Assembly (NCBI GenBank): GCA_905187655.1
Contig: CAJJIV010000001.1
Location: forward strand, 1-51,428
Direction of reading: 5' to 3'
Source of the DNA: an uncultured Eubacteriales bacterium
GTDB taxonomy: Bacteria; Bacillota; Clostridia; Christensenellales; UBA1242
DNA: 51,428 nucleotides
Every line of letters starts with the position of its first letter. Within the stretch, counting starts at the first letter, position 1. Below are positions 8 to 49,321 of this stretch, one piece after another. Position numbers and translations under genes: made by a program. A model generated the notes under the pieces. The model did no database searches. It worked only from the letters and a program-made list of their open reading frames with translations, and had not been told where the DNA came from.

Positions 8-37
8 ATGACATTTGTCATTTTTTTGTTTTTTTGG
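8..37 (+). terminator. Possible weak intrinsic terminator for a gene ending upstream of the window
   Basis: Short AT-rich palindrome atgac-attt-gtcat followed by two T-runs. Confidence 0.3.
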
Positions 38-527
38 GCAGTTGACTATAATTTTCTGTTTATTTTTTGTTTTGTTGTTTCATACTATAAATAAAATATT
101 TCAAGGTGGTATTATGTTGAAAAAAATAAAAAATTTATGTTGGTTATTTTGCACAAAAGCCAATTTTATTGCAGTAAATAAAATATTTTTAAAAATTTTC
201 TATCTTCATTTTTTGCTGAAAAACAAACACTTTTTAATTAAAAAATTTTGTGTTTGGCACAAAACTTTGAATTTTTGATTTTTATATGTCATAATGCATT
301 TGTAAAGTTAATTTACAGTTTAATTTCCCCCAAATTTAATTTACCCAATTCACCATTGCCTTCCCCAAAAGCAAAATCACAAATACAAAAACACAAGTTA
401 AAACAGGGTTATACCAATTGTTTTAAGCAGTGTTACAAATTAATCTGGCCTAAGATAAATTATTTGGTTATCACAAATGGTAAAGTGCACCAAGCCCCCA
501 AATTTGGTAAGTTTTGTATTAACTAAT

Positions 528-560
528 AAAACGAAAAAAGGTTGAAGTAAAGTCTTCAAC
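528..560 (-). terminator. Intrinsic terminator downstream of SRP RNA
   Basis: Stem gttgaag/cttcaac (541-560), followed on the minus strand by cttttttcgtttt. Confidence 0.6.
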
Positions 561-571
561 CTTGTTAAACT

Positions 572-843
572 AAAAAAACTGCACATCTTTTTTCGTTACA
601 CTATACCGAAGCGGTGGCAGAGTAGTTAACTCCTCCAAAGCATCCTTGTGGCACACAGCAGATTTTGCTTAATGCTGCTGCGGTCAGGCTCTGACATGGT
701 TCACAAAGTGCTGTTGCACAAGACCTTGGTATCATAATCACTTGCTCTGATCAGCCTTCCATATAATGTACCTAGAAAAGCATTCAGCCCTGCTATAGCG
801 GATTGCAGGAATAGGGCACCGCTAACTCCCCACCTAGTGCAGT
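572..843 (-). ncRNA. ffs: Signal recognition particle RNA, long Bacillus-type form with Alu domain (about 266 nt)
   Basis: Minus-strand read has the Alu-domain block gttagcggtgccctattcctgcaatccgctatagcagggctgaat. It also has the domain IV block aaccatgtcag...agcagcattaag, as recalled from B. subtilis scRNA. 5' ACUGCAC pairs with 3' GUGCAGU, followed by a U-run. A canonical promoter lies 7 nt upstream. Confidence 0.85.
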
Positions 844-849
844 CCAATA

Positions 850-878
850 ATTATATGCCAAATTCAATAAAATTGCAA
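850..878 (-). promoter_or_regulatory. Sigma-70-type promoter of SRP RNA
   Basis: Minus strand TTGCAA (873-878), 17-nt spacer, TATAAT (850-855). Confidence 0.7.
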
Positions 879-918
879 TATTTTTACCCAAGTTTTTATT
901 AAAACATTTTTAAAAGGT

Positions 919-947
919 TTGAAATCGACATTTTACTATGGTATACT
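919..947 (+). promoter_or_regulatory. Promoter of the HEPN-like/CBS gene
   Basis: TTGAAA (919-924), 17-nt spacer, TGg-TATACT extended -10 (942-947). Confidence 0.6.
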
Positions 948-985
948 AACAGCGAAGGGCTATAATGTAAACACAGGAGATATTA

Positions 986-1705
986 ATGGAAAAATCAAAA
1001 TCCAACGCAGAGCGTTTTATTACCGCATATAACCGGCTAGACAAGGGCATAAGAGATATTTACAATTTTAAGCCCGCACTCAGTTTTTCAGATGTAATTA
1101 GAAAATCGGCATCAATTAATCTTGTTATTAAAAAGCACGAAGATGACTTAATTGACTATGGCAGATTGCGAAATGCCATTGTGCATCGTAGTAACGATAA
1201 GGTTATTGCTGAGCCACATGACGACATTGTAGAAGACATAGAATCAATTGTTCGTGCTATTACAACACCACCACTTGCAATGCAGTCGGTTGTTAACCGA
1301 AGTGTATTTATTGCTCAGGGCGAAGTTAAATTGGGAAATGTTTTGGCAGAAATGTACCGAACGGGTTACAGCAATATTCCTGTTTATCTTGAAAGTACTT
1401 TGGTTGGTGTGCTAAACAGAAAAATGATTATTGATAAACTGGGGGAAGCGGTTTCTAAGGGTGAAGATATAAATAAACTTATGGGCAAACGGGTGGTAGA
1501 CTGTTTGTCTGTTTTAGATGAAAATAATCACTATGAAGTTGTGTCAGATAATGTTACTATAGACAATTTGTTATATATGTTTCAGCAAAATCGCAAACTA
1601 AGCACGGTAATAATAACCCCAAGCGGAGCATATACCGAAAAGCCTGTTGGCATTGTTGTTACCGCCGACATAATAGATATGCAGACCATTTTAGACAACT
1701 ATTAA
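986..1705 (+). CDS. CBS-pair protein with an N-terminal helical domain carrying an Rx4H (HEPN-like) motif
   Basis: 239-aa ORF with AGGAG SD. The C-terminal ~140 aa have tandem CBS-like repeats (NIPVY...VGVLNR, ...PVGIVVTADII). The N-terminal ~95 aa are helical with R62-NAIV-H67. Confidence 0.75.
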   Translation: MEKSKSNAERFITAYNRLDKGIRDIYNFKPALSFSDVIRKSASINLVIKKHEDDLIDYGRLRNAIVHRSNDKVIAEPHDDIVEDIESIVRAITTPPLAMQSVVNRSVFIAQGEVKLGNVLAEMYRTGYSNIPVYLESTLVGVLNRKMIIDKLGEAVSKGEDINKLMGKRVVDCLSVLDENNHYEVVSDNVTIDNLLYMFQQNRKLSTVIITPSGAYTEKPVGIVVTADIIDMQTILDNY

Positions 1706-1765
1706 AATTGTTGAATTAGGCAAAAATTAAACAAATTGCAAATAATAAAGGGAAAACAAAAAACA

Positions 1766-2617
1766 ATGAAAGTTAACTATGATTGGAAAGATTTCTGTGT
1801 TTTAGAAATGGGCAAGGGTGAAAAACTTGAAAGATGGGGAAGTGTTACTCTTTTAAGACCAGACCCACAAATTATTTGGGGCGAAAAAATTGATGAAAAA
1901 AAATGTGATGCACACTATTTTAGGTCAGACACAGGTGGCGGAAAATGGAAGCAGATAAAAAATATGCCTGAAGAATGGCAAATTGGTTGGCGCAATCTTA
2001 AATTCTTAATTAAACCAATGGGTTTTAAGCATACGGGGTTGTTTCCGGAACAGGCAGTTAACTGGGATTATATGATACAAGAAATTAAATTGGCCAAACG
2101 CCCAATAAGTGTACTTAATTTGTTTGCTTACACTGGTGGCGCAACAGTTGCGTGTGCAAGCGCAGGTGCAAGTGTTACACATGTAGACAGTGCAAAAAAC
2201 ATGGTAGAGCGAGCAAAACAGAATGCAAAATTAAGCGGTTTAGAAAATGCACCAATAAGATATATAGTAGATGATTGCTTTAAGTTTGTAGAACGAGAAA
2301 TAAGACGTGGCAAAAAGTATGATGCAATTATTATGGATCCACCAAGTTATGGTCGGGGAACAAATGGTGAAGTTTGGAAACTTGAAGATAACATTTATGA
2401 TTTTGTGGCATTATGTAAAAAAGTATTAAGCGATAAGCCACTTTTTGTTTTAATAAATAGTTATACAACAGGTCTTGGTGCAACGGCGATGGAAAACGTG
2501 CTTAAAAGTGCACTGGGGCTTAAAGGGAAATATGAGTCTTACGAAGTAGGCTTACCTGCCAAAAATGGATTAAATTTGCCTTGTGGCAACAGTGCAATAT
2601 TCAAAGGGGAAAACTAA
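1766..2617 (+). CDS. Class I SAM-dependent (rRNA) methyltransferase, RlmI/PF10672-like
   Basis: Motifs NLFAYTGG (SAM binding) and DPPSYG. ATG at 1766 follows a G-rich SD, and the track start at 1736 is a less likely TTG. Confidence 0.8.
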   Translation: MKVNYDWKDFCVLEMGKGEKLERWGSVTLLRPDPQIIWGEKIDEKKCDAHYFRSDTGGGKWKQIKNMPEEWQIGWRNLKFLIKPMGFKHTGLFPEQAVNWDYMIQEIKLAKRPISVLNLFAYTGGATVACASAGASVTHVDSAKNMVERAKQNAKLSGLENAPIRYIVDDCFKFVEREIRRGKKYDAIIMDPPSYGRGTNGEVWKLEDNIYDFVALCKKVLSDKPLFVLINSYTTGLGATAMENVLKSALGLKGKYESYEVGLPAKNGLNLPCGNSAIFKGEN

Positions 2618-3318
2618 TGGAAACAAAATTTAATATTCTTTATGAAGACAAGCAAATAATTGTGGTACAAAAACCACAAAATATGCCAAGCCAGGCAGAT
2701 AGCTCGGGCGATGAAAACCTTTTGGACTTAATTAAGGCATATATAAAGGAAAAAGACCATAAGCCTGGCAATGTTTACCTTGGGCTTGTTCATAGGCTAG
2801 ACCGACCTACTGGCGGAGTAATGGTTTTTGCAAAAACAAGTAAAAGTGCTGAAAGACTTTGTGAACAGTTTAAGACCGATGATGTGCATAAAAGATATTT
2901 TGCTGTTGTTGTTGGTTGTCCTAGAGAAAAGCGTGGCAGGCTTGTGCATTTCTTAAAAAAAGATGAACGCAACAATATGGTTACAATTGTTCCTGCAAGC
3001 ACTACCGATGCAAAACGTGCTGAATTAACCTATGAAGTCATTGACGAAAACAAGGGGTTTAGTTTGGTAGAAATTAATTTAATTACCGGCAGAAGTCATC
3101 AAGCAAGAGTTCAAATGGCTTCATTGGGCACACCAATTTATGGCGATGTTAAATATGGTGGGAATAAAACGGTTAAAGGACTTCTTAATTTGTATGCTGT
3201 TGAATTGCACTTTGATCACCCAGTGACAAAGGAACATATGCGATTTATTTGCTATCCGCCAGAAGACCAAAAGATGTGGAATTTATTTAATATAGAAAGA
3301 TATTTAATGATAAAGTAA
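2617..3318 (+). CDS. RluA-family pseudouridine synthase
   Basis: Catalytic HRLDRPTGG motif. TAATG stop/start overlap with the upstream gene, with the start at an internal ATG of the track ORF. Confidence 0.85.
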   Translation: METKFNILYEDKQIIVVQKPQNMPSQADSSGDENLLDLIKAYIKEKDHKPGNVYLGLVHRLDRPTGGVMVFAKTSKSAERLCEQFKTDDVHKRYFAVVVGCPREKRGRLVHFLKKDERNNMVTIVPASTTDAKRAELTYEVIDENKGFSLVEINLITGRSHQARVQMASLGTPIYGDVKYGGNKTVKGLLNLYAVELHFDHPVTKEHMRFICYPPEDQKMWNLFNIERYLMIK

Positions 3319-3323
3319 CTGCT

Positions 3324-4055
3324 ATGAAAAAAAGATTAGACCAACTTTTAACAGATAAAAAACTATTTGCCAGCCGAACAAAGTCGGCAGATGCCATTAA
3401 AAATGGTGCGGTTTGTGTTGACGGACAAGAAGTTTTAAAGCCTGCCGAACTTGTAGAAGAAGATGCCGAAATAAAGGTAGTTAAAGACACTTGTCCATTT
3501 GTAAGTAGGGGTGGGCTTAAACTTAAAGGAGCAATAGAAAAGTTTAAACTTAATTTTGCAGGCAAGGTTGTGTTAGATCTTGGTGCAAGTACTGGTGGGT
3601 TTACCGACTGTGCGCTTAAAAATGGCGCTAAAAAAGTTTTTGCGATAGATGTGGGAACAAATCAGTTAGCACCTGTGCTTAAGCAAGATGGCCGAGTTGT
3701 AAGTATGGAAAATACCGATATAAGGAACTTGGACAAAAGAGTCATTGAACAAAGCGATATTATTGTTGCCGACCTTTCTTTTGTTTCACTTGCAAAAGTT
3801 TTGGGTAAAATAATCAACGATGCAACCAGTCAGCCATTTGTTCTTTTAATTAAACCACAATTTGAATGTGGCTACAAAATTGCCAAAAAAAACAAGGGTG
3901 TTATTAAAGATTTGGCCTTAGCAGAGCAAATAGCAAAAGCCACCGTTACCCAGTTAGAGAATATGGGGCTTAAACTTGTAAATTTCGCCTTGTCGCCAAT
4001 TTTAGGCGGTGATGGTAATAGTGAATTTATTTCAATGTTTGTTAAAAACAATTAG
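3324..4055 (+). CDS. tlyA: TlyA-family rRNA 2'-O-methyltransferase (S4 domain plus FtsJ-like domain)
   Basis: N-terminal S4-like RLDQLL...SR motif and DLGASTGGFTD SAM motif. 243 aa is typical. Confidence 0.85.
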   Translation: MKKRLDQLLTDKKLFASRTKSADAIKNGAVCVDGQEVLKPAELVEEDAEIKVVKDTCPFVSRGGLKLKGAIEKFKLNFAGKVVLDLGASTGGFTDCALKNGAKKVFAIDVGTNQLAPVLKQDGRVVSMENTDIRNLDKRVIEQSDIIVADLSFVSLAKVLGKIINDATSQPFVLLIKPQFECGYKIAKKNKGVIKDLALAEQIAKATVTQLENMGLKLVNFALSPILGGDGNSEFISMFVKNN

Positions 4056-4130
4056 CAGTTTGTAATTATACATATTAATAAACGAAAATAAGTTTATAAA
4101 CTTAATCACAAGTTTAATATAACAAGAATA

Positions 4131-4170
4131 AAAAGAGAACAGTATCAAATCGATATTGTTCTCTTTTTTT
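4131..4170. terminator. Bidirectional intrinsic terminator between tlyA and pgi
   Basis: Stem gagaacagtat/atattgttctc (one G-T pair) flanked by an A-run and a T-run. Confidence 0.7.
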
Positions 4171-4199
4171 ATATTTAAACTATATTATATTTTTCCTTA

Positions 4200-5465
4200 T
4201 TACTTTTTTTGTAATATCTCGCGCATTTGTGTTTTGTATCCTTCTACCCCTGGTTGATTAAATGGATTAACACCAAGCATATAGCAATAAGTTGCACAGG
4301 CTGTTTCAAAAAAGTAAACAAGTTCACCATAAGTTTCTTCGGTTAGGCAATCTAGTTCAATTTTTAAAATTGGAACGTTTGCCTTAATATGACTGCGAAT
4401 TGTGCCTTCCTCAGCCGACATATTAATTTCAGACATTGTTTTGCCATTAAGGTAGGTAATTGGGCTTTCGGCGCCAACTTCTAGAGCAAAATCATTTTCG
4501 GTGGTAGGAATAGTTATATATGTTTCAAACAATAATGGCGTTCCCTGTTCTACGAACTGTCCAAAAGAGTGCAGGTCGGTAGAATAATTAAGACTAGTAG
4601 GGTAGATGCCCTTTTTGTTTTTTCCTTCACTTTCTGCAAACAACTGCTTATACCACTCGCCAAATTCCTTTAGTCGGTCATCAAAACAACAAAGTACTTC
4701 AATTTTTTTGCCAAACTTTTGGCTTATTAGCAATCTTGCAATAGCATAAGTATATGCTGGGTTAGTTAATGGGTCAAAATTAAAGCAGTCGTTATACATT
4801 TTCTTGGCACCGCTTAACACTTTGTCTATATTAATACCTGCAACTGCCATAGGAAGTAGACCAACAGGACTTAGCACTGAATATCTGCCACCAACGGTGC
4901 GTGGAATAACAAAGCTTGCATAGCCTTCTTTGTTGCACAACTCTCTTAGGTATCCGTTTTGGTAGTCGGTTATCATATAAATTCTGCGCTTGTATTCATC
5001 TTTCTTTTTATATTTCTTTTTCATAAAAGATTCAAACACATTAAGTGCTACCAGTGTTTCAAGCGTTGTGCCAGATTTAGATATAACCGCAAGGCAAACT
5101 TCTTTGTTTTTAAGGCTCTCAATTGTGTTAGATAATGCATATGCACTAAAATTTGTGCCAACATAAATTACTTCGGTCTTTGGAGTGCGTTTAAGCATTT
5201 TAATTGCACTATATCCGCCAAGATAAGAACCGCCAATTCCAAGAACTACAAGTACCTCGGCTTTATCTTGTATGTCTTTTGCGGTGCGCTTAATGTTCAT
5301 TAAGTCTTGCTTAGTTAACTCGTTTGGAAGTTCTATCCAGCCAGTTCCAGAAGAACGGTCAAGGTTGTGTAAATTATCGTGTGCAGAGCGTAAGGCTTTT
5401 AGCACTTTTTTATTTGTTAGGTCGTTCTGTTTAAGCCCCGAATATGCAAAATTTACTTTAATCAT
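4200..5465 (-). CDS. pgi: Glucose-6-phosphate isomerase
   Basis: 421-aa ORF with GGAGAG SD and PGI-family sequence (GIGGSYLG, ISKSGTT(L)ET). Confidence 0.9.
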   Translation of the reverse strand: MIKVNFAYSGLKQNDLTNKKVLKALRSAHDNLHNLDRSSGTGWIELPNELTKQDLMNIKRTAKDIQDKAEVLVVLGIGGSYLGGYSAIKMLKRTPKTEVIYVGTNFSAYALSNTIESLKNKEVCLAVISKSGTTLETLVALNVFESFMKKKYKKKDEYKRRIYMITDYQNGYLRELCNKEGYASFVIPRTVGGRYSVLSPVGLLPMAVAGINIDKVLSGAKKMYNDCFNFDPLTNPAYTYAIARLLISQKFGKKIEVLCCFDDRLKEFGEWYKQLFAESEGKNKKGIYPTSLNYSTDLHSFGQFVEQGTPLLFETYITIPTTENDFALEVGAESPITYLNGKTMSEINMSAEEGTIRSHIKANVPILKIELDCLTEETYGELVYFFETACATYCYMLGVNPFNQPGVEGYKTQMREILQKK

Positions 5466-5955
5466 TGTTCTCTCCTTATTTTATATTTTATGTACACCAA
5501 GTAAGCTTGGTTTATGTTCATTATTTTATTCTATCATATTTTATAATTGTGTCGCAAATGAAATTCCAACTTTTTTAACCTTAAAAACAATGTAGATTAA
5601 TTGGCAGTGCAAAATTTGAAACCTGGGTTTAAAATGGGTTTTTAACATTTGTTAAACCTTTGTTAAAAAACAAGCAAAAAATTATAAATTTTCATTAATC
5701 TATTTAATGCACATTGGACTTAGTAGGTGTAGTGTTCCCTAATTTGCCTTTTAGCGCAAACGGGGCTTGAAGGTAAAAATAAGCGAAGTTAATTATGGCT
5801 AGGATTTTGCAATTAAACATTAATAAATGTATGTACAAAATGCACAAAATTTGTTATTATGGCAAAAAAACACGCAAAAAAATAGGCTTGACAAAAGAAA
5901 TTTTAAACTTTTTTCTTTCACCCTTAAAAAACCCTTATTTTTTTTGGAAAAAGTC

Positions 5956-5984
5956 TTGACACGGAGCCGTGTGTTTAGTATAAT
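5956..5984 (+). promoter_or_regulatory. Consensus promoter of the S10-spc-alpha ribosomal operon
   Basis: TTGACA (5956-5961), 17-nt spacer, TATAAT (5979-5984). Confidence 0.8.
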
Positions 5985-6159
5985 GTGTTCGTTGCATTGT
6001 GGGGTGATGCCGAAGGTTACTCATTATGGAATCCAAAAGAGATAACTTTGGCTGACAATAGTGCCAATTAAATAAGGTGCGACAGAGAGATAATCTTGTA
6101 ACCAATCCTTATGCAACAGGAAGATTATCGCCTCTGGGAAATAAAAAAAGGAGAAGAAA
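5985..6159 (+). promoter_or_regulatory. Structured 5' leader of the S10 operon, function unknown
   Basis: About 175 nt between promoter and rpsJ. Perfect 9-bp stem 6089-6097/6121-6129. Possible long-range pairing gttgcat (5991-5997)/atgcaac (6111-6117). Confidence 0.45.
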
Positions 6160-6468
6160 ATGGCTACACAAAAAATTAGAATTACTTTAAAAGCATTTGA
6201 CCACAACCTAATTGACCAATCGGCTGCAAGGCTTGTGGAAACTGCAAAAAAGGCTGGGGCTAAGGTATCGGGACCTATTCCTATGCCAACCGAGAAAGAA
6301 GTTGTTACAATACTTCGCTCTCCACACAAACACAAAGATTCCCGTGAGCAATTTGAAATAAGAACACACAAAAGACTTATTGATATCTACAATCCATCTT
6401 CAAAGACTGTTGATTCACTTATGAAGATTGACTTGCCAAGCGGTGTTGATATCAAAATTAAGCTTTAA
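6160..6468 (+). CDS. rpsJ: 30S ribosomal protein uS10
   Basis: Conserved uS10 sequence, AGGAGA SD, first gene of the S10 operon. Confidence 0.97.
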
Positions 6469-6492
6469 TTATGGGCAGGAGGATAAAAAGAT

Positions 6493-7116
6493 ATGAACGC
6501 AATATTAGGTAAAAAAGTTGGTATGTCTCAACTATTTACAGCAAACGGTTTAGTTGTTCCTGTAACCGTAGTAGAGGCTGGTCCATGTTATGTATCACAA
6601 AAGAAGACAGTAGAAAAAGATGGTTATAACGCAGTTCAATTGGCATTTACCGATGTTAAGCCAAGCAGACTAACAAAACCAGAATTAGGTCACTTAAAAA
6701 AGGCAAACGTTGCTCCTAAAAAATATCTTAAGGAATTTGATATTGATGGCACAAACCTTGAAATAGGTGCTGAAATTAAATGTGATGTATTTAAAGCAGG
6801 TGACATTGTAGATGTAACCGGACAAACAAAAGGTAGAGGATTTACTGGCCCAATTCAAAGATGGAATCAATCTCGTGGTCCAATGAGCCATGGCTCAGGC
6901 TATCACAGAGGAGTTGGTTCAATGGGTTCAAGTGCCGACCCAAGCCATGTATTCAAAAACAAAAAAATGGCTGGTCAATATGGTAACGAAAGAGTTACAA
7001 TTCAAAACCTTGAAATTGCAAAAGTCGATGTTGAAAGAAACTTGTTGTTAATAAAAGGTGCAATACCTGGCGCAAATGGCAATCTTGTTTTCGTTAAAAC
7101 AGCAGTTAAGAAGTAA
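6493..7116 (+). CDS. rplC: 50S ribosomal protein uL3
   Basis: Conserved uL3 sequence and operon position. Confidence 0.97.
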
Positions 7117-41863: not shown

Positions 41864-43648
41864 ATGCAAGAGTTTAAATTTTTTAATCTTACACACAAAG
41901 TGCCAAGTGGAACGGCACAAGCAAAACAAAAAGTTAGTTACACCCTAGAAGTGGCACAAAATGTGTACACTCCTAAGGTGTACTTTGTTTATTTTAAAGA
42001 TGGTGAAACGGAAAGATTTACCCAGGAAATGCACTTTGTTAAAATGGAAAATGGCTATAAACAATTTATTGTGCAAACCCATTTTAGTTCGGCAGGACTA
42101 TATTGGTACTATTTTATTGCAGGCGATAAGATAATTCAGGCAGGTAAAAATGATGGAGAAATTGTTGCACAAAAAAAACTTACCACTCCATTTTCAGAAA
42201 TAGTAACTGCAAACAAGCCAATTATGGATACCATAAATTACACTGATGGAATAATTTATCATGTTTTTGTAGACAGATTTAATAAGGTGGGAGAAGTAGA
42301 GTCGCGAGAACCTTTGTTCTTAAATCCCAAGTGGGGTGGAAGCTGTACCGATAGCACCGACTATAAAGTAATTAATAGTGAATGTTACGGTGGAAACTTA
42401 AAAGGCATTACGCAAAAATTGCCATACCTAAAAACTTTAAATGTTAAAATTTTATATTTGTCACCAATTTTTTATGCAAATAGTAATCATAAATATAATA
42501 CAGCGGATTTTATGCAAGTTGACCCAATGTTTGGCTCAGAAGAAGACTTAAAAGAATTATGCGCAAAGGCCGAAAAATTGGGAATAAAAGTGATACTAGA
42601 TGGTGTGTTTAACCATGTTGGCAGTGATAGTGTATATTTTGACCGATATAGTCGTTTTGGAGCCAAAGGTGCGTATAATTCCCTTTCTTCAAAATATATA
42701 GATTGGTTTAATTTTGCCGAGTGGCCAAACACCTACGACTGTTGGTGGGGTGACCCAACTTTACCGTGTTTAAATGAGTCTAATAGAACATATCAAAATT
42801 TAATTGTTGGCAAAAATGGTGTAATAGAAAAGTATATGGGGCTAGGTGTAAGTGGGTTTAGACTTGATGTGGTAGATGAACTTGGCGATCAGTTTTTAAA
42901 TAAAATTTGTAAAAAAATATATGAAATAAACAAAAGTGCAATAATTATTGGAGAAGTGTGGGAAGATGCTTCCAAAAAGATTTCGTACAATGAACGACGA
43001 AATTATTTGCTTGGAAAGCAGTTAAATAGCGTAACAAATTATCCACTTAAAGATGCCATTTTAGAATATGTAAAATCTGCTTCAACCGACTTATTAGAAG
43101 ACACTTTTAATAATATTCAAGATGATTATCCAAATTTTGTTAAATATAACTTAATGAATATTATTGGCTCGCACGATACAACAAGAATATATAGTTTTCT
43201 TAAAGTTAATTCAGTTAGTACACAAGATGCAATAAAACGGTTAAAAATAGCAACCCTAATTCAGTATGTTTTTGTAGGTATTCCTACAATTTACTATGGA
43301 GATGAAACACTTTTAGAAGATTTAAAGCCAAACAACAGCCGAAATTGTTTTCCTTGGGGAAAGGAAAATATTAATTGCCAAAACTGGTTTATTTCGCTTG
43401 GTAAATTAAGAAAAGAAAAGGCAGTTGTTATGGGAGAAATAGATTTATTTGTTCCAGAAAATGGGGTAGTGATAATTAAACGAAGTTACAAAAAAGAAGA
43501 AATTCTGCTTGTCACAAATATGCAAGACAACTTGTTTGAATTATCAACAGAAGATGGATATTTAGATTATTTTACCGCTGAAAAAATTACCGACAAAATT
43601 AAAGTTGGTTCAAAGGGTTTTGCTTTGTTAAAACGAAAGAAACAATAA
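41864..43648 (+). CDS. GH13 alpha-amylase-family enzyme (neopullulanase/cyclomaltodextrinase-like)
   Basis: GH13 regions I-IV visible (DGVFNHVG, GFRLDVVDEL, GEVWED, IGSHDTTR). Confidence 0.85.
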   Translation: MQEFKFFNLTHKVPSGTAQAKQKVSYTLEVAQNVYTPKVYFVYFKDGETERFTQEMHFVKMENGYKQFIVQTHFSSAGLYWYYFIAGDKIIQAGKNDGEIVAQKKLTTPFSEIVTANKPIMDTINYTDGIIYHVFVDRFNKVGEVESREPLFLNPKWGGSCTDSTDYKVINSECYGGNLKGITQKLPYLKTLNVKILYLSPIFYANSNHKYNTADFMQVDPMFGSEEDLKELCAKAEKLGIKVILDGVFNHVGSDSVYFDRYSRFGAKGAYNSLSSKYIDWFNFAEWPNTYDCWWGDPTLPCLNESNRTYQNLIVGKNGVIEKYMGLGVSGFRLDVVDELGDQFLNKICKKIYEINKSAIIIGEVWEDASKKISYNERRNYLLGKQLNSVTNYPLKDAILEYVKSASTDLLEDTFNNIQDDYPNFVKYNLMNIIGSHDTTRIYSFLKVNSVSTQDAIKRLKIATLIQYVFVGIPTIYYGDETLLEDLKPNNSRNCFPWGKENINCQNWFISLGKLRKEKAVVMGEIDLFVPENGVVIIKRSYKKEEILLVTNMQDNLFELSTEDGYLDYFTAEKITDKIKVGSKGFALLKRKKQ

Positions 43649-43662
43649 AAAAGACAGCCTAA

Positions 43663-43666
43663 AAAT
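43663..43666. repeat. Target-site duplication, left copy (AAAT)
   Basis: AAAT immediately precedes IRL. An identical AAAT follows IRR at 45541-45544. Confidence 0.7.
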
Positions 43667-43703
43667 TGCAGTGCACCCCAAAACTGACATACGAAAAAAA
43701 GTA
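43667..43703. repeat. Left terminal inverted repeat (IRL)
   Basis: tgcagtgcaccccaaaactgacatacg..., aligned with the reverse complement of the right end. Confidence 0.75.
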
Positions 43704-43710
43704 TGAGTTT

Positions 43711-43749
43711 AGAAAGAAATAGTTTAATCGCTATTTCTTTCTTTTTTTG
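43711..43749 (+). terminator. IS-internal terminator upstream of orfA (blocks read-in transcription)
   Basis: Perfect 12-bp stem agaaagaaatag/ctatttctttct, 8-nt loop, T7. Confidence 0.8.
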
Positions 43750-43825
43750 TGTCCAACAATGAGATAAATATGTTATACTCTATATGGTTGGTAGATGACT
43801 ACCACAAATAAAAGGAGATAACATT

Positions 43826-44119
43826 ATGGCAAAGAAAGGACAGTATTTTCAAAGTTATTCTAATGACTTGAAATACGAAGTGTTGGTAAAACACTTTAAT
43901 GAGTTTATTCCAGATACTCAGTTGTCCAAAATGTATGGGATACCCCGTGGTACAATAAGAAACTGGATAATTAAGTGTAAGAAAGGAGAAGATTTTTACA
44001 CAGACTATAGAAGTTTAGGCTATGGCAGACCAAGAGTAGCAGATATTGACTATAAGGAAAAATATATGTTACTAAAAAAAATCCTGAATTTCAAAACACA
44101 ACTAAAAGAGAGAAGATAA
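43826..44119 (+). CDS. IS3-family transposase OrfA (HTH)
   Basis: 97 aa with AAGGAG SD. Small basic HTH-like protein preceding the rve-type orfB. Confidence 0.85.
   Translation: MAKKGQYFQSYSNDLKYEVLVKHFNEFIPDTQLSKMYGIPRGTIRNWIIKCKKGEDFYTDYRSLGYGRPRVADIDYKEKYMLLKKILNFKTQLKERR
44074..44080 (+). promoter_or_regulatory. Programmed -1 ribosomal frameshift site A AAA AAA
   Basis: Heptamer in the orfA zero frame (cuA AAA AAA auc). The -1 frame is open from 44056 and continues into orfB. Confidence 0.75.
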
Positions 44120-44943
44120 TCTTAATCAACACACTTAAAGAGCATTATCCTGTAAGATTGTTATGTGATTTGCTAGATATTTCAGAACGAACATATTATA
44201 GACATAGAGATGATAAAGACTCTGATATTGCAGATTATCTCCTTATAAAAGAAGTCTTTAATGATTCTATGCAAACTTATGGATATAGAAGAATTAAGAA
44301 AGCTTTACTACTTAAACATGGTGTGGTAATGAATGAAAAGAAAATACTCAGGATTATGAGAAAATATGGTTTAATGGCTAGATATGTTACTAAATGCAAG
44401 AAACCACATTATCGTAGAATTGAAGAAAATGTAAGACCGGACTTAGTTAAAAGACATTTCAATGTAGATGCTCCAGATAAAGTTTGGGTTACTGATATAA
44501 CCTATTTAACTTTAGGTAACAAAAGAATGTATTTATCTACTATTCTCGACCTATATGATGGTAGTGTTGTATCTTACAAAGTTCATCATTCTCCAACTGT
44601 TGATTTAGTTATAGAAACCCTAAAATTTGGTCATTTAATGAGATATTGGGCTAAAAATGTAATTATTCATAGCGACCAAGGAACTCAATATACTTCTCAT
44701 GAATACAAAGCATTTTGTAATAATTTAGGATTTCAAATATCGATGAGCAGAAAAGGTAGTCCATTAGACAATGCTGTTATGGAAAACTGGCATAGTTTAC
44801 TTAAAAAAGAGACCTTACACAACAATGATTACCAAGATATTAACGAGTATGTAAATGGTGTTTTTGACTGGATTTGGTTCTATAAGACTGAAAGGATTAG
44901 CTTAAGTGAACGACAACATAATATAAATGAAAATATTTGTTAG
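44080..44943 (+). CDS. IS3-family transposase OrfB (DDE/rve catalytic part, made as an OrfAB fusion by -1 frameshift)
   Basis: DDE context VWVTDITY, HSDQGTQYTS, DNAVMENWHSLLKKE. There is no convincing independent start, and the track start at 44158 is a TTG. Confidence 0.85.
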   Translation, partial: NPEFQNTTKREKIILINTLKEHYPVRLLCDLLDISERTYYRHRDDKDSDIADYLLIKEVFNDSMQTYGYRRIKKALLLKHGVVMNEKKILRIMRKYGLMARYVTKCKKPHYRRIEENVRPDLVKRHFNVDAPDKVWVTDITYLTLGNKRMYLSTILDLYDGSVVSYKVHHSPTVDLVIETLKFGHLMRYWAKNVIIHSDQGTQYTSHEYKAFCNNLGFQISMSRKGSPLDNAVMENWHSLLKKETLHNNDYQDINEYVNGVFDWIWFYKTERISLSERQHNINENIC

Positions 44944-45016
44944 TTTAAATTTTGGTTTTGGTATTGAAATAAATATCTAAATATGCTATACTCTCTATAA
45001 TTTTAAGGAGAGTATT

Positions 45017-45475
45017 ATGTCAACACCATCAAATGTAAGCAGTATTATGATATATAAAATAATGAGGGATTTTGAAAAAACAGGCAGAACATTGCATTTC
45101 ATGTTTGAACTTGACAATTTTTCGCAACAAGTCATTGATTTTGCAAATTCAATTAGTGATGATAATTTTTGGATTGCCCCAACACCAGAAGTTAAAGAAG
45201 ATTTATTAAGAATATGTGATGTTAATAGTTCATTTTGTAAATTAAACAAACAAAAATATGCTAACGGTGGGGAAAAATTTGCAAAAATCAAAATTGGACA
45301 AATGCCATATTCTTGGCTAAAAGGCTCTGTTAAAGTTTTTAAAGAATATGAAGAAAAAAGACAACAAATTCCAGCAAAATCTACTATTCATTATCCTAAC
45401 GGAGAGAAACAAACATCAGCAATATTTTGGGATGGAGAACCAATTATTATAGAGGAAGATACTTTTAGCAAATAA
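45017..45475 (+). CDS. Passenger ORF of unknown function (152 aa) inside the IS
   Basis: AAGGAGAG SD. Own promoter TTGAAA-17-TGc-TATACT (44964-44992). Own terminator. No recognised motif. Confidence 0.65.
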   Translation: MSTPSNVSSIMIYKIMRDFEKTGRTLHFMFELDNFSQQVIDFANSISDDNFWIAPTPEVKEDLLRICDVNSSFCKLNKQKYANGGEKFAKIKIGQMPYSWLKGSVKVFKEYEEKRQQIPAKSTIHYPNGEKQTSAIFWDGEPIIIEEDTFSK

Positions 45476-45477
45476 AA

Positions 45478-45510
45478 AGAAGGGCAAATTTTGCTCTTCT
45501 TTTGTCTTTT
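45478..45510. terminator. Terminator after the passenger ORF, probably works in both directions
   Basis: 9-bp stem agaagggca/tgctcttct (one G-T pair), followed by tttgtcttttt on plus and ttttattt on minus. Confidence 0.65.
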
Positions 45511-45540
45511 TATAGTGTGTCATTTAAAGGTTGCTGTTCA
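45504..45540. repeat. Right terminal inverted repeat (IRR)
   Basis: Reverse complement reads tgaacagcaacctttaaatgacacac... Confidence 0.75.
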
Positions 45541-45544
45541 AAAT
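45541..45544. repeat. Target-site duplication, right copy (AAAT)
   Basis: Identical to 43663-43666. Confidence 0.7.
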
Positions 45545-45570
45545 TATGGCTGTCTTTTTGTTTACTATAC

Positions 45571-45993
45571 TTACTTTTTATTTAATACTACCGAAACAAG
45601 CTTCATGTCTACCTGTCCGTTATAGTTTGTCTTAAAGTGTTTCATAACAACGGGAACTGATTTGTCTGGAAGCGAATTAATAATTTCAGCAATTTCAGTT
45701 TCTGTTAGCATTTTAGGAAGGTACTTTTGAATTGCTTCTTTTTGAGCAAGAATGTTATTTGCTTGTTCGCTGTTATTTGCTTTAAGGTAATTGGCGTGTT
45801 CTTCATCTAATTCTTTTATGGTTTTAGTAATAATTTTAACCATTTCTGGGTCGCCAATTTCATTGTTATTTGTTCTTGCTTCAACGCTTGCAAGTAAATA
45901 TTTGTTCATAATAATTCCATAAATATTCCTTGCATTTTTATCTTTGTTTTTAAGGGCTTCAATATTAGCCTTTTTTATTTCATCTATTATCAT
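45571..45993 (-). CDS. yqeY: GatB/YqeY-domain protein
   Basis: 140 aa with the YqeY pattern (IKKANIEALKNKDK...YLPKMLTE.EI...I). AAAGGAG SD. Confidence 0.8.
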   Translation of the reverse strand: MIIDEIKKANIEALKNKDKNARNIYGIIMNKYLLASVEARTNNNEIGDPEMVKIITKTIKELDEEHANYLKANNSEQANNILAQKEAIQKYLPKMLTETEIAEIINSLPDKSVPVVMKHFKTNYNGQVDMKLVSVVLNKK

Positions 45994-46528: not shown

Positions 46529-46569
46529 GTAAATATATAATTAGTAAATTCAAAAATATGTTATAATTC

Positions 46570-46624: not shown

Positions 46625-49321
46625 ATGTTAGAATTAAAAAACATAAGTAAAATATATGAAACAAAAGACCTAAAAGTTACTGCCCTAGATGGAATTAGTA
46701 TTAGTTTCAGAAAGAGTGAGTTTGTGTCTATTTTGGGTCCAAGCGGATGCGGTAAAACTACAATGTTAAACATTGTCGGTGGCCTAGATAAGTACACTAG
46801 TGGGGACCTTGTTATTAACGGCAAAAGTACCAAAGATTTTAGTGACCGAGATTGGGATTCTTACCGGAATCATACTATAGGATTTGTTTTCCAAAGTTAT
46901 AACTTAATTCCGCATCAAACGGTACTAGAAAATGTTGAACTTGCATTAACTCTTTCTGGAATTAAAAAAGAAGAAAGACATCGAAGAGCAACAGAAGCAC
47001 TTGCCAAAGTAGGACTAAGCGACAAACTTAAAGCAAAACCAAACCAATTATCTGGTGGACAAATGCAAAGGGTAGCAATTGCCAGAGCCTTAGTTAACGA
47101 CCCAGACATTGTGCTAGCCGATGAACCAACTGGTGCGTTAGATAGTAAAACTAGTGTTCAGGTTATGGAACTTCTTAAAGAAATATCTAAAGACAAACTT
47201 GTTATAATGGTTACTCATAATCCAAGTTTGGCAGAAGAATATAGCAGTAGAATAATAAAATTGCTAGATGGCAAACTTATTAATGACAGTAACCCCAAAA
47301 CCGCAGAGAATGAGTTAGAAGAGGTAAAAACAGTTAACGAAACTTTATCTAAACTTCGAAAGAGCAAAAAAAGACATCATTCACCAAAAACTACAATGTC
47401 ATTTTTCACGGCCTTGTCACTTAGCCTTAAAAACCTATTAACAAAAAAGGCAAGAACATTTTTGGTTGCCTTTGCAGGAAGTATTGGCATAATTGGAATT
47501 GCACTTGTGCTTGCGTTGTCTACCGGATTTTCGGGGTATGTTAACAGAGTGCAAGAAGATACCTTGTCTAGTCACCCTATAACCATAGAAGCACAGAGTG
47601 TTAGTTATATGGACATTATGGCGGCAATGATTATGGACAATAGTAGCACCAATAAGGCATCAACTGACAACGGAGTGGAGTCTGGTGGTGCACTTGCGGA
47701 AATTATGAATAAATTTGGTAAAGCATTAAAGGTTAACAATCTTCAAAAATTTAACAATTATTTAGTTGAAAATTATGCACAAATACAGGAACATGTAAGC
47801 GCAATTCAATACACCTATGACATTGGATTGGAATTTTATGATAGCGTAAATAAGAATGTTCAGCCATATAGCAGTGCACTATATAATGTCATAATCAATT
47901 ACTCTATGCAATATTTAAGGCAAAAGACCAACCTAGTTCCAACAAAAATTGCAAACGGATACAACTTGTCAGTTCCAGAAGATGGTAATTACGATCTTAA
48001 ATTTTTGGAAGATTATAGTTCGGTAGAGGCAGTAGCGGGTATTGTTACACAACTTAAAACCGCTGGTCAAGTTGATTTAACAAACGAACAAGTTGCCGGT
48101 ATTGTTACACTTTTAATGAACATTCCAATTTCTAACTTTGCAATTTATAATATGCAAATTTTTAACGAAGCCATAGATAGTCCTCAATTACTAAAAGAGC
48201 AATATTCTCTTGTTGGAGAAGGTAGTAAGTGGGCAACTGAAAGTAATGAAGTTATGCTTGTATTAAACAGTGATAATCGTCTAGATGACTATATTTTGTA
48301 CGCACTAGGTCTTGTTACCGAAGAGCAAATGACAGAATCACTAACAAATTTGCTAAACAATCAAGACTCTACTATGAAAGTCAACTATTCTGACATTTTG
48401 GGCAGGGAATATAAGGTGTTAACCGATTCCGATTATTATCTAAATATAAGTACAGACCCAGATGTTAAAAATATTGTGGATATCAGAAAATATTATTACC
48501 ACGAAGAAAAAGATGCACAAGGTAATATCACAAGTTCTTATTATGATGCGGAGTTCTATACCAAGTATAACGAAATATTAGAAAACTGTACAAATAAAGT
48601 TAAAATTGTTGGTGTGCTTAAACCTAAAGAAGATGTTACAAACGGCTGTTTAACAAGCGGGATTGCTTATTTGAACTTATTAACGCAAAAAATGATTGAA
48701 ATAAATAATAGTTCGCTAGCAGTTGAAAGTGATGAAACTAATAAAATAGATACATCAACTCCAATTAAAATTAGCATTTATGCAAGCAGTTTTGATGCAA
48801 AAAATTCTATTGAAGACTTTATTAAAAATTATAATAAGAATGCCAAAGAAGGCGACCAAATTGAATATTCTAACCTAATTGGCACCATCATGTCTGGTGT
48901 TTCAACCATTATTAGTGCAATAACCTATATTTTAATTGCTTTTGTTTCGGTCTCTCTTGTTGTATCTTCAATAATGATAGGCATTATAACTTATATTTCT
49001 GTTCTAGAACGCATAAAAGAAATAGGAATTTTAAGGAGTATTGGTGCAAGCAAACAAGATATTAAGCGAGTATTTACTGCCGAAACCTTAATTATTGGTT
49101 TTATTGCAGGTCTTCTTGGTATATTGGTAACACTTATTTTTACCATACCACTTAATTTAATTATAAAGGCAGTAGCAGGAATAAATATTCATGCCAGTCT
49201 TCCAATTTTGGCAGCAATAATTTTAATTGCAATAAGTATGCTGTTAACCTTTATTGCTGGATTAATTCCATCAAGAATTGCGAGCAAAAAAGATCCAGTT
49301 GTTGCCTTAAGAACCGAATAA
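46625..49321 (+). CDS. Fused MacB-type ABC transporter (ATPase plus FtsX-like permease)
   Basis: Walker [10 protein letters not shown], signature LSGGQMQR, Walker [13 protein letters not shown]. Then TM1, a roughly 450-aa extracytoplasmic region and 3 C-terminal TM helices. Confidence 0.9.

Follow-up and report, generated by a model that had tools for sequence, protein, structure and literature searches.

The 1874-bp block at positions 43667-45540 of a 51,428-nt stretch of DNA from an uncultured Eubacteriales bacterium (contig CAJJIV010000001.1; the whole stretch is called the window here) is very probably an intact insertion sequence (IS) of the IS3 family that has turned into a small transporter IS (tIS), with a terminator-shaped target and an exchangeable cargo module that is expressed from its own signals. 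The block includes: (i) the transposase genes orfA and orfB, (ii) a third gene, for a 152-residue protein, between orfB and the right end, and (iii) the left and right inverted repeats (IRL and IRR) that enclose all of these genes. A preliminary description, made from the sequence and a list of its open reading frames (ORFs), had taken the block for an unusual cargo-carrying IS3 member and a possible small transporter IS, and the occurrence of the whole three-gene unit at different sites (in the comparison sequences L181 and L183) bears this out. The added suggestion that the element spreads an accessory function is unproven, as the cargo has no assignable function. Beyond that description are the terminator target, the exchange of cargo between near-identical backbones and a transposase-less derivative that keeps the cargo. 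Features lie on the forward strand unless stated otherwise.

Element ends and mobility of the three-gene unit

The IRL (43667-43703, beginning TGCAGTGCACCCCAAAACTGACATACG) and the IRR (45504-45540, ending ...GTGTCATTTAAAGGTTGCTGTTCA) form the longest inverted repeat of the region and match, ungapped, at 24 of 37 positions, with TG and CA as the element termini. The termini and coordinates agree with the preliminary description, whereas its count of 25 identities was one too many. When the IRL was slid over all right ends from 44900 to 45640, the top partner ended exactly at 45540 (24/37) and the runner-up scored 19; random 37-mer pairs from the window score 24 at a rate of 1 in 200,000. The target duplication, AAAT, is found on both sides of the block as described before (43663-43666 and 45541-45544). 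The L183 site, where the duplication can only be 4 bp and the element must end in CA, rules out a 5-bp duplication with a terminal C. The final ~38 bp of the right end are conserved in all close copies. L021 and L181-L187 also have the IRL-type end, as does L018, where the tip is 1 nt shorter.

Among the GTDB species genomes, one close copy was found, in a metagenome-assembled genome (MAG) of Candidatus Onthoplasma sp. (L021), with all other matches at most 36% identical; in a collection of metagenome contigs, no match exceeded 37% identity. Exact copies from human-gut metagenomes occupy, without exception, the amylase/yqeY site of the window and are uninformative on mobility. The same IRL and IRR were, by contrast, recovered at four independent sites with different duplications: AAAT in the window, TTTT in L018, AGAT in L182 and ACAA in L183. 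Within a 90% OrfB identity cluster of 71 members, L182/L185 and L183/L184 have these ends at two sites other than that of the window. The L181 and L183 elements reside in different terminators and have 99.95% identity across 1836 bp, a span that takes in the third gene; to judge from this identity, the pair is the product of a recent transposition of the entire three-gene unit. Further copies, for which the preliminary description had proposed a search, exist in relatives, at other sites, whereas the 51-kb window contains no further copy of the element or of either end. On its question whether the passenger always travels inside the inverted repeats, this is so for the close copies, all of which end after a third gene and none before, and is not so for the homologues of the third gene that lack IS ends (L008-L017, L020 and L210).

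A derivative of 812 bp in L018/L019 corresponds to window positions 43670-43759 joined directly to 44834-45540. It contains the IRL, 90 bp, a 110-bp orfB stub, the cargo gene (protein 86% identical) and the IRR, has its own TTTT duplication and lies in a further terminator; a single site was seen. The retained orfB stub clearly marks the derivative as the product of a recent deletion within the full element. It would represent a transposase-less mobile insertion cassette (MIC) that retained the cargo and that may have been mobilised in trans.

These data bear on whether the block is instead an ordinary IS3 element that ends after orfB, next to a resident host gene, with a merely coincidental IRR at 45540. 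Normal chromosomal genes that are homologous to the third gene and share its promoter do occur without IS ends, and related ISs (OrfB 57% identical) end 52 bp after orfB. A comparable IRR with a duplication directly after orfB, or copies that stop before the passenger, had been named in the preliminary description as signs of such a shorter element, and neither was found: the best 25-mer in 44944-45030 matches at 16 of 25 positions and has its left arm outside the element. The orfB stop is only 18 bp from the start of the homology to the stand-alone genes. The four sites at which the same ends bracket a third gene, each with its own 4-bp duplication, the near-identical L181 and L183 units and the flanks of the 1874-bp unit, which rejoin to a perfect terminator hairpin, all contradict a chance neighbourhood, which is hardly credible. 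A relict inner IRR at 44936-44965 was also considered and rejected, as its resemblance is loose, it does not end in CA and the scan lent it no support.

The exchangeable cargo slot

Three backbones share 91-92% identity in two stretches, one that runs from the IRL to shortly beyond the orfB stop and one that covers the final ~38-70 bp; the OrfB proteins of the window and L021 are 97% identical. The genes held between these regions are: (i) cargo type 1, in the window and L018 (152/155 residues), (ii) cargo type 2, in L181-L186 (137 residues, MKYPTNDLYVRCFERKDF...), and (iii) cargo type 3, in the Candidatus Onthoplasma sp. MAG L021 (~135 residues, broken by a frameshift and a stop). The type-1 and type-2 proteins have no similarity (best BLASTP E-value 0.6). 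Junction alignments reveal that each cargo gene has its own promoter of the same general form, that the divergent block begins directly after the orfB stop and that the backbones become alignable again at the cargo stop codon or beyond it. The terminator and the right end are common to types 1 and 2, while type 3 has a different terminator hairpin. A putative fourth cargo type of 164 residues (L205) was rejected, as it proved to be this same element interrupted by Ns at a scaffold gap.

The cargo module of the window (44944-45503), the part that differs between sister elements, comprises a promoter, a ribosome-binding site, the 152-residue gene and a terminator. The promoter scan identified TTGAAA-17-TATACT with a TG extension (44964-44992), which is a joint-best consensus match in the scanned region (10/12) and the better of the two forward-strand promoters with a TG extension. 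It is followed by a strong ribosome-binding site (AAGGAGAG, 45005-45012), by the type-1 gene (45017-45475) and by a terminator-like hairpin (45475-45503), so that the independent, fully equipped ORF of the preliminary description is upheld. A 19/21-nt repeat common to the orfA and cargo promoters was considered as a duplication and rejected, as it is the usual extended -10 form of the host. The motif AAATATGnTATAMT occurs at 43766-43779 (orfA), at 44979-44992 (cargo) and at 46554-46567, before the host ABC-transporter gene at 46625; thus, the likeness of the two IS promoters reflects host promoter style.

Type-1 homologues without IS ends, 81-86% identical, occur in several contexts: downstream of a gene resembling recN (L008-L017), close to infC (L020) and as the first gene of an operon (L210). 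The DNA similarity of these stand-alone homologues to the window starts at 44947-44964, which is 4-21 bp beyond the orfB stop and just upstream of the promoter, and the window cargo promoter is homologous to the promoters of the stand-alone genes in L009, L020 and L210. Thus, the cargo looks like a captured resident gene. Since homologues exist outside ISs and the gene is replaced in sister backbones, the third gene is most probably a passenger that takes no part in transposition.

Type-2 genes were seen only with ISs, including a second IS (L190 and L193) with an orfB that is ~67% identical in DNA sequence and with related terminal repeats. The L190 element (3808-6650) has a terminator target and a GCC duplication; the L193 element spans 3845 bp (30-3874). 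Their transposase regions are 98.8% identical, and their cargo sets differ: L190 carries a DUF5680 gene, a gene for 117 residues and a type-2 gene (139 residues), while L193 carries a type-2 gene (137 residues) and genes for 216 and 393 residues. A relative without cargo, P0059 (OrfB 57% identical, inverted repeat TGAAGTGAACCCC), is an IS of ~1.24 kb that ends 52 bp after orfB and would represent the plain ancestral form. Judging from these comparisons, cargo has been carried and replaced repeatedly in this part of the IS3 family. L192 (3690-4760) contains a decayed L193-type remnant, with a degenerate end, short stubs of orfB and orfA and an apparently intact type-2 gene (140 residues), a second case of cargo outliving the transposase.

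The third ORF could also be an accessory protein of the element itself, a regulator or target selector similar to the extra genes of IS21 or IS66. In favor of such a role, each close copy has one ORF of 135-155 residues at this position with a strong promoter, and the model of the window protein is weakly winged-helix-like (ORC/Cdc6 and MUS81 WH domains, E = 0.3-1). This explanation is improbable, as the proteins of the three types are unrelated in sequence, the L021 version is a pseudogene, type 1 is found outside any IS in several contexts, type 2 is also carried by a different IS in the opposite orientation among other genes, and the cargo-less relative targets terminators equally well.

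Very little probability is likewise assigned to a decayed composite transposon (IS, gene, IS), a non-functional unit in which the cargo variation would stem from independent captures. With a preference for terminators, two copies would readily come to lie on either side of a single gene, the cargo module begins right after the orfB stop and in L021 brings its own terminator, and no exchange mechanism or recombination site was recognised. Such an origin concerns the past of the element rather than its present state: the present unit has one IRL, one IRR and intact orfA and orfB, and near-identical copies at two sites (L181 and L183) speak for recent movement of the whole. The terminator and right end shared by types 1 and 2 fit replacement within the slot better than fully independent captures. 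A transporter IS with an exchangeable cargo module is preferred over both alternatives.

Transposase genes

The assignment to the IS3 family and the placement of orfA and orfB within 43826-44943, both given in the preliminary description, are confirmed. The orfA gene (43826-44119) encodes 97 residues, a length found in every close copy, and has a weak helix-turn-helix signal, with weak matches to the PHROG transposase phrog_151 (E = 7e-4) and to Pfam HTH_23 (E = 0.04). It is preceded by a probable extended -10 promoter (AAATATGTTATACT, 43766-43785), which was recognised by eye and received no call in the promoter scan. The orfB gene, listed as an ORF of 261 residues (44158-44943), is read in frame -1 with respect to orfA; its reading frame (44056-44943) is open from 44056 across a run of eight A residues (A8, 44074-44081), at which frame analysis places the -1 shift from orfA to orfB. 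Ribosomal frameshifting or transcriptional slippage at this run would yield an OrfAB fusion, the classical IS3 arrangement.

The domains of OrfB are Pfam HTH_21 and rve (rve E = 3e-21), and the protein passes the NCBIfam model for IS3 transposases (NF033516) with 275.6 bits versus a cut-off of 160. The catalytic residues are D113, D173 and E209 (numbering of the 261-residue ORF), with DD(35)E spacing. The transposase of the element is of the IS3 family, and the element has the rve domain with DD(35)E, the 0/-1 frames with a slippery site, the TG...CA repeats and the short duplication of this family. Where IS3 elements hold transposition genes only in ~1.2-1.5 kb, this one measures 1874 bp with a third, unrelated gene inside its ends; this departure is the point of interest and is no argument against the IS3 assignment of the transposase. 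Beyond the 90% cluster to which it belongs, OrfB has no relative with more than 58% identity; those at 55-58% amount to thousands of proteins, and annotated plasmid-borne IS3 members such as ISLmo1 are ~38% identical; the IS is probably unnamed so far. Membership in the IS1447-type group with +1 slippage was rejected, as the frame relation here is -1.

Terminator targets and end hairpins

In the region 43400-45900, the 1874-bp block is flanked by two convergent host genes, an alpha-amylase-family gene upstream (41864-43648) and a yqeY-like gene downstream (45571-45993, reverse strand). The left half of a split host terminator, AAAAAGACAGCC plus loop, occupies 43648-43666, of which the final 4 bp are the left AAAT; the right AAAT copy with the right terminator half, TATGGCTGTCTTTTT, occupies 45541-45559. 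When the outside flanks of the block (left AAAAAGACAGCCTAAAAAT, right TATGGCTGTCTTTTT) are joined minus one AAAT, a perfect A-tract, hairpin and T-tract result (-17.4 kcal/mol, z = -7.2). The rejoined hairpin is the common terminator of the convergent alpha-amylase-family and yqeY genes, and the block is thus an insertion into the loop of that terminator. The predicted empty amylase/yqeY site, as reconstructed, is AAAAAGACAGCCTAAAAATTATGGCTGTCTTTTT.

The five reconstructed empty sites (window, L018, L182, L183 and L190) all consist of an A run, a hairpin and a T run, with folding energies between -11.4 and -19.6 kcal/mol and z-scores between -3.3 and -7.6, and the insertion point is in the terminator loop or at the loop edge. 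The target stems are unrelated in sequence (GACAGCC, ACACACTC, GGCACAAG, GTCATCA and AGAGCC); thus, the element appears to recognise the form of the terminator and not one repeat family. The cargo-less relative P0059 has flanks of the same terminator type, which places the terminator preference in the wider clade.

The element also carries hairpins of this kind near its own ends, and the terminator scan found two internal terminator-like hairpins where 0.5 were expected. The left one, with a T run, lies inside the left end (43711-43742) and is conserved in L018, L021, L181 and L190. The right one (45475-45503) is set between an A-tract and a T-tract inside the right end, would terminate the cargo transcript and is common to type-1 and type-2 elements, while the hairpin of L021 differs. 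The left hairpin may stop transcription that runs on from the upstream host gene, which lost its own terminator through the insertion, and the right hairpin, read on the other strand, would replace the destroyed terminator of yqeY. Together, the end hairpins may protect orfA and orfB from transcription that originates outside the element.

The cargo protein

The type-1 product is a small cytoplasmic alpha/beta protein. The cargo types have no match in Pfam, NCBIfam, PHROG or PADLOC, permissive thresholds included. The type-1 family has 29 invariant columns, two cysteines among them, and a profile search of 1.8 billion clustered representatives yielded 27 members and no link to a named family; the window protein is confined to a narrow group of gut bacteria. 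No cargo homologue was detected in viral contigs or in a plasmid collection; the viral contigs also have neither element end, and the plasmid collection contains only distant IS3 transposases (38%).

The AlphaFold2 model of the type-1 protein has a mean pLDDT (predicted local distance difference test score) of 80, and each 10-residue block from 11 to 110 averages 82-96. Foldseek searches of this model against the PDB and BFVD gave no match below E = 1e-3: the top PDB matches are the weak ones to winged-helix domains mentioned above, and the top viral structure match is an uncharacterised Myoviridae protein (E = 3.9e-3). The type-2 model is of moderate quality (pLDDT 69), and a structure search with it matched nothing.

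In L210 (2501-4307), the cargo homologue heads a tight four-gene operon of small uncharacterised ORFs (155, 144, 129 and 159 residues), ~270 bp downstream of a look-alike of a tRNA gene 3' end, which may mark the edge of an integrated island.

Evidence that weighs against a transposable three-gene unit

Several observations count against the interpretation given above. The copy in L021 (2509-4336) lacks a target duplication, and the half-terminators on its two sides come from different terminators, which suggests recombination between two copies or a mis-joined contig. L181 has a 9-bp duplication (AGATAAACT, 2983-2997) at a site where L182 has 4 bp (2989-2998). A third ORF is present in every close copy, which leaves room for a role in the element's own biology. 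An empty site for the window insertion was not found among contigs with an identical YqeY protein: all of these that reach the intergenic region carry the element, and the rest stop short. As the window's own empty site was not recovered, the hairpin targets are reconstructions. On inspection, a convincing -35/-10 pair was not seen across the abutted IRR-IRL junction; such a junction promoter is typical of IS911-like elements. The comparison sequences come almost entirely from metagenome contigs, some of which are evident chimeras at the repeat (the right flank of L186; the flanks of L195 and L197). A catalogue entry for the same or a similar element, including an IS3-family tIS, may exist. 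These points leave intact the conclusion that the 1874-bp unit, cargo included, is by its structure and distribution a transposable element.

With regard to the L181 duplication, 9 bp are unusual for an IS3-type element; the 4-bp AGAT duplication at that site is common to L182 and L185-L187, and L181 is an ENA scaffold with four similar places.

Comparison with known systems

The IS3 family is one of the largest among ISs and one of the most thoroughly studied, and IS3 elements are regarded as carrying a transposase only. The window element shares with IS911, IS150 and the IS1447-like elements of Firmicutes two overlapping reading frames with a -1 shift at an A run, the rve domain with DD(35)E, imperfect TG...CA repeats, a duplication of 3-4 bp and a helix-turn-helix OrfA. 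It differs from the usual IS3 element of ~1.2-1.5 kb in its length of 1874 bp and in the 560-bp promoter-gene-terminator module between orfB and the IRR. IS1447, of a Firmicutes IS3 subgroup, undergoes +1 transcriptional slippage on an A9 run (PMC6211511), in contrast to the -1 shift of the window element.

Transporter ISs are listed only for the IS1595 and IS66 families in one database paper, and tIS and MICs are described as IS derivatives by ISsaga (PMC3129680). Like the tIS of the IS1595 and IS66 families, the window element has a passenger gene inside its terminal repeats that moves at each transposition: a passenger lies between the same repeats at four insertion sites and was co-transposed with the transposase genes in L181/L183. 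The transposase family differs, and the passenger of the window element is also exchanged between near-identical backbones. Among MICs (term per PMC3129680) and MITEs (miniature transposable elements with inverted repeats), the L018/L019 derivative fits the MIC definition, with IS repeats, a coding gene, no transposase and a 4-bp duplication; it differs in that it still contains the 110-bp orfB stub.

The IS3-family elements IS1397, ISKpn1 and ISPsy8 insert in repetitive extragenic palindromic (REP) units and bacterial interspersed mosaic elements (BIMEs), and the transposases of IS1397 and ISKpn1 are themselves reported to set this specificity (PMC1525189). Similarly to the window element, they choose palindromic intergenic hairpins as targets. 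By contrast, they are directed to one repeated family (REP, or palindromic units) and have no cargo, whereas the five targets of the window element have in common only the terminator form, with an A-tract, a stem that contains GC, a small loop and a T-tract. ISPpu9 of the IS110 family is reported to reside in intergenic palindromes and to have an extra expressed module (ssr9) downstream of its transposase gene (PMC12288879). It resembles the window element in its intergenic palindrome site and in the extra module after the transposase gene, and it differs in its DEDD IS110 transposase, small-RNA passenger and REP target.

Proposed mechanism and implications

The element is proposed to produce an OrfAB DDE transposase from orfA and orfB by the -1 shift at the A8 run. 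Movement would most likely be of the IS3 copy-out/paste-in type, as in the family, and would proceed from the outer ends, IRL at 43667 and IRR at 45540, so that everything between them, the third gene included, would move together. Insertion is expected in or beside the loop of an intergenic intrinsic terminator hairpin, with duplication of 4 bp, after which the element's own hairpins inside each end may restore termination of the flanking genes and shield the transposase genes. The slot between the orfB stop and the last ~38 bp would accept an exchangeable module of promoter, ribosome-binding site, gene and terminator, and the type-1 cargo was probably captured from a stand-alone gene of related bacteria. 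As a guess, modules may be exchanged by recombination between copies, or a terminator-bounded gene may be captured between two insertions, after which the inner end is lost.

On this account, an IS3 lineage moves a fully equipped gene, and other genes take the same position in its sister copies and in a related IS. The distinction between an insertion sequence and a transposon is thereby blurred in a family where such cargo had not been catalogued, and annotation pipelines that end IS3 elements after orfB miss mobile genes. The terminator preference and the built-in replacement terminators suggest a low-cost insertion, which could explain persistence in small gut genomes. Given their repeated recruitment by mobile elements, the cargo proteins are reasonable candidates for functional screens.

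A broader and distinctly tentative proposal, which we regard as rather doubtful, is that an IS3 clade in uncultured low-G+C gut Bacillota serves as a gene-shuttle platform with terminator homing, replacement terminators and an exchangeable cargo slot. If true, the platform would be functionally comparable to a self-mobile one-cassette integron, terminators would offer a safe landing site after almost every operon, and cargo types 1, 2 and 3, DUF5680 and others would form an accessory gene pool, possibly tied to conflicts with phages or other mobile elements.

Additional observations

The host bacterium, of low G+C content (34%), is probably a human-gut member of the Bacillota with a relationship to Candidatus Onthoplasma. 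ISs of the P0059 type (L194-L203) are multi-copy in gut metagenomes, and several of their contigs join flanks from different sites. In L201, the cargo-less IS lies beside an IS110-family transposase gene.

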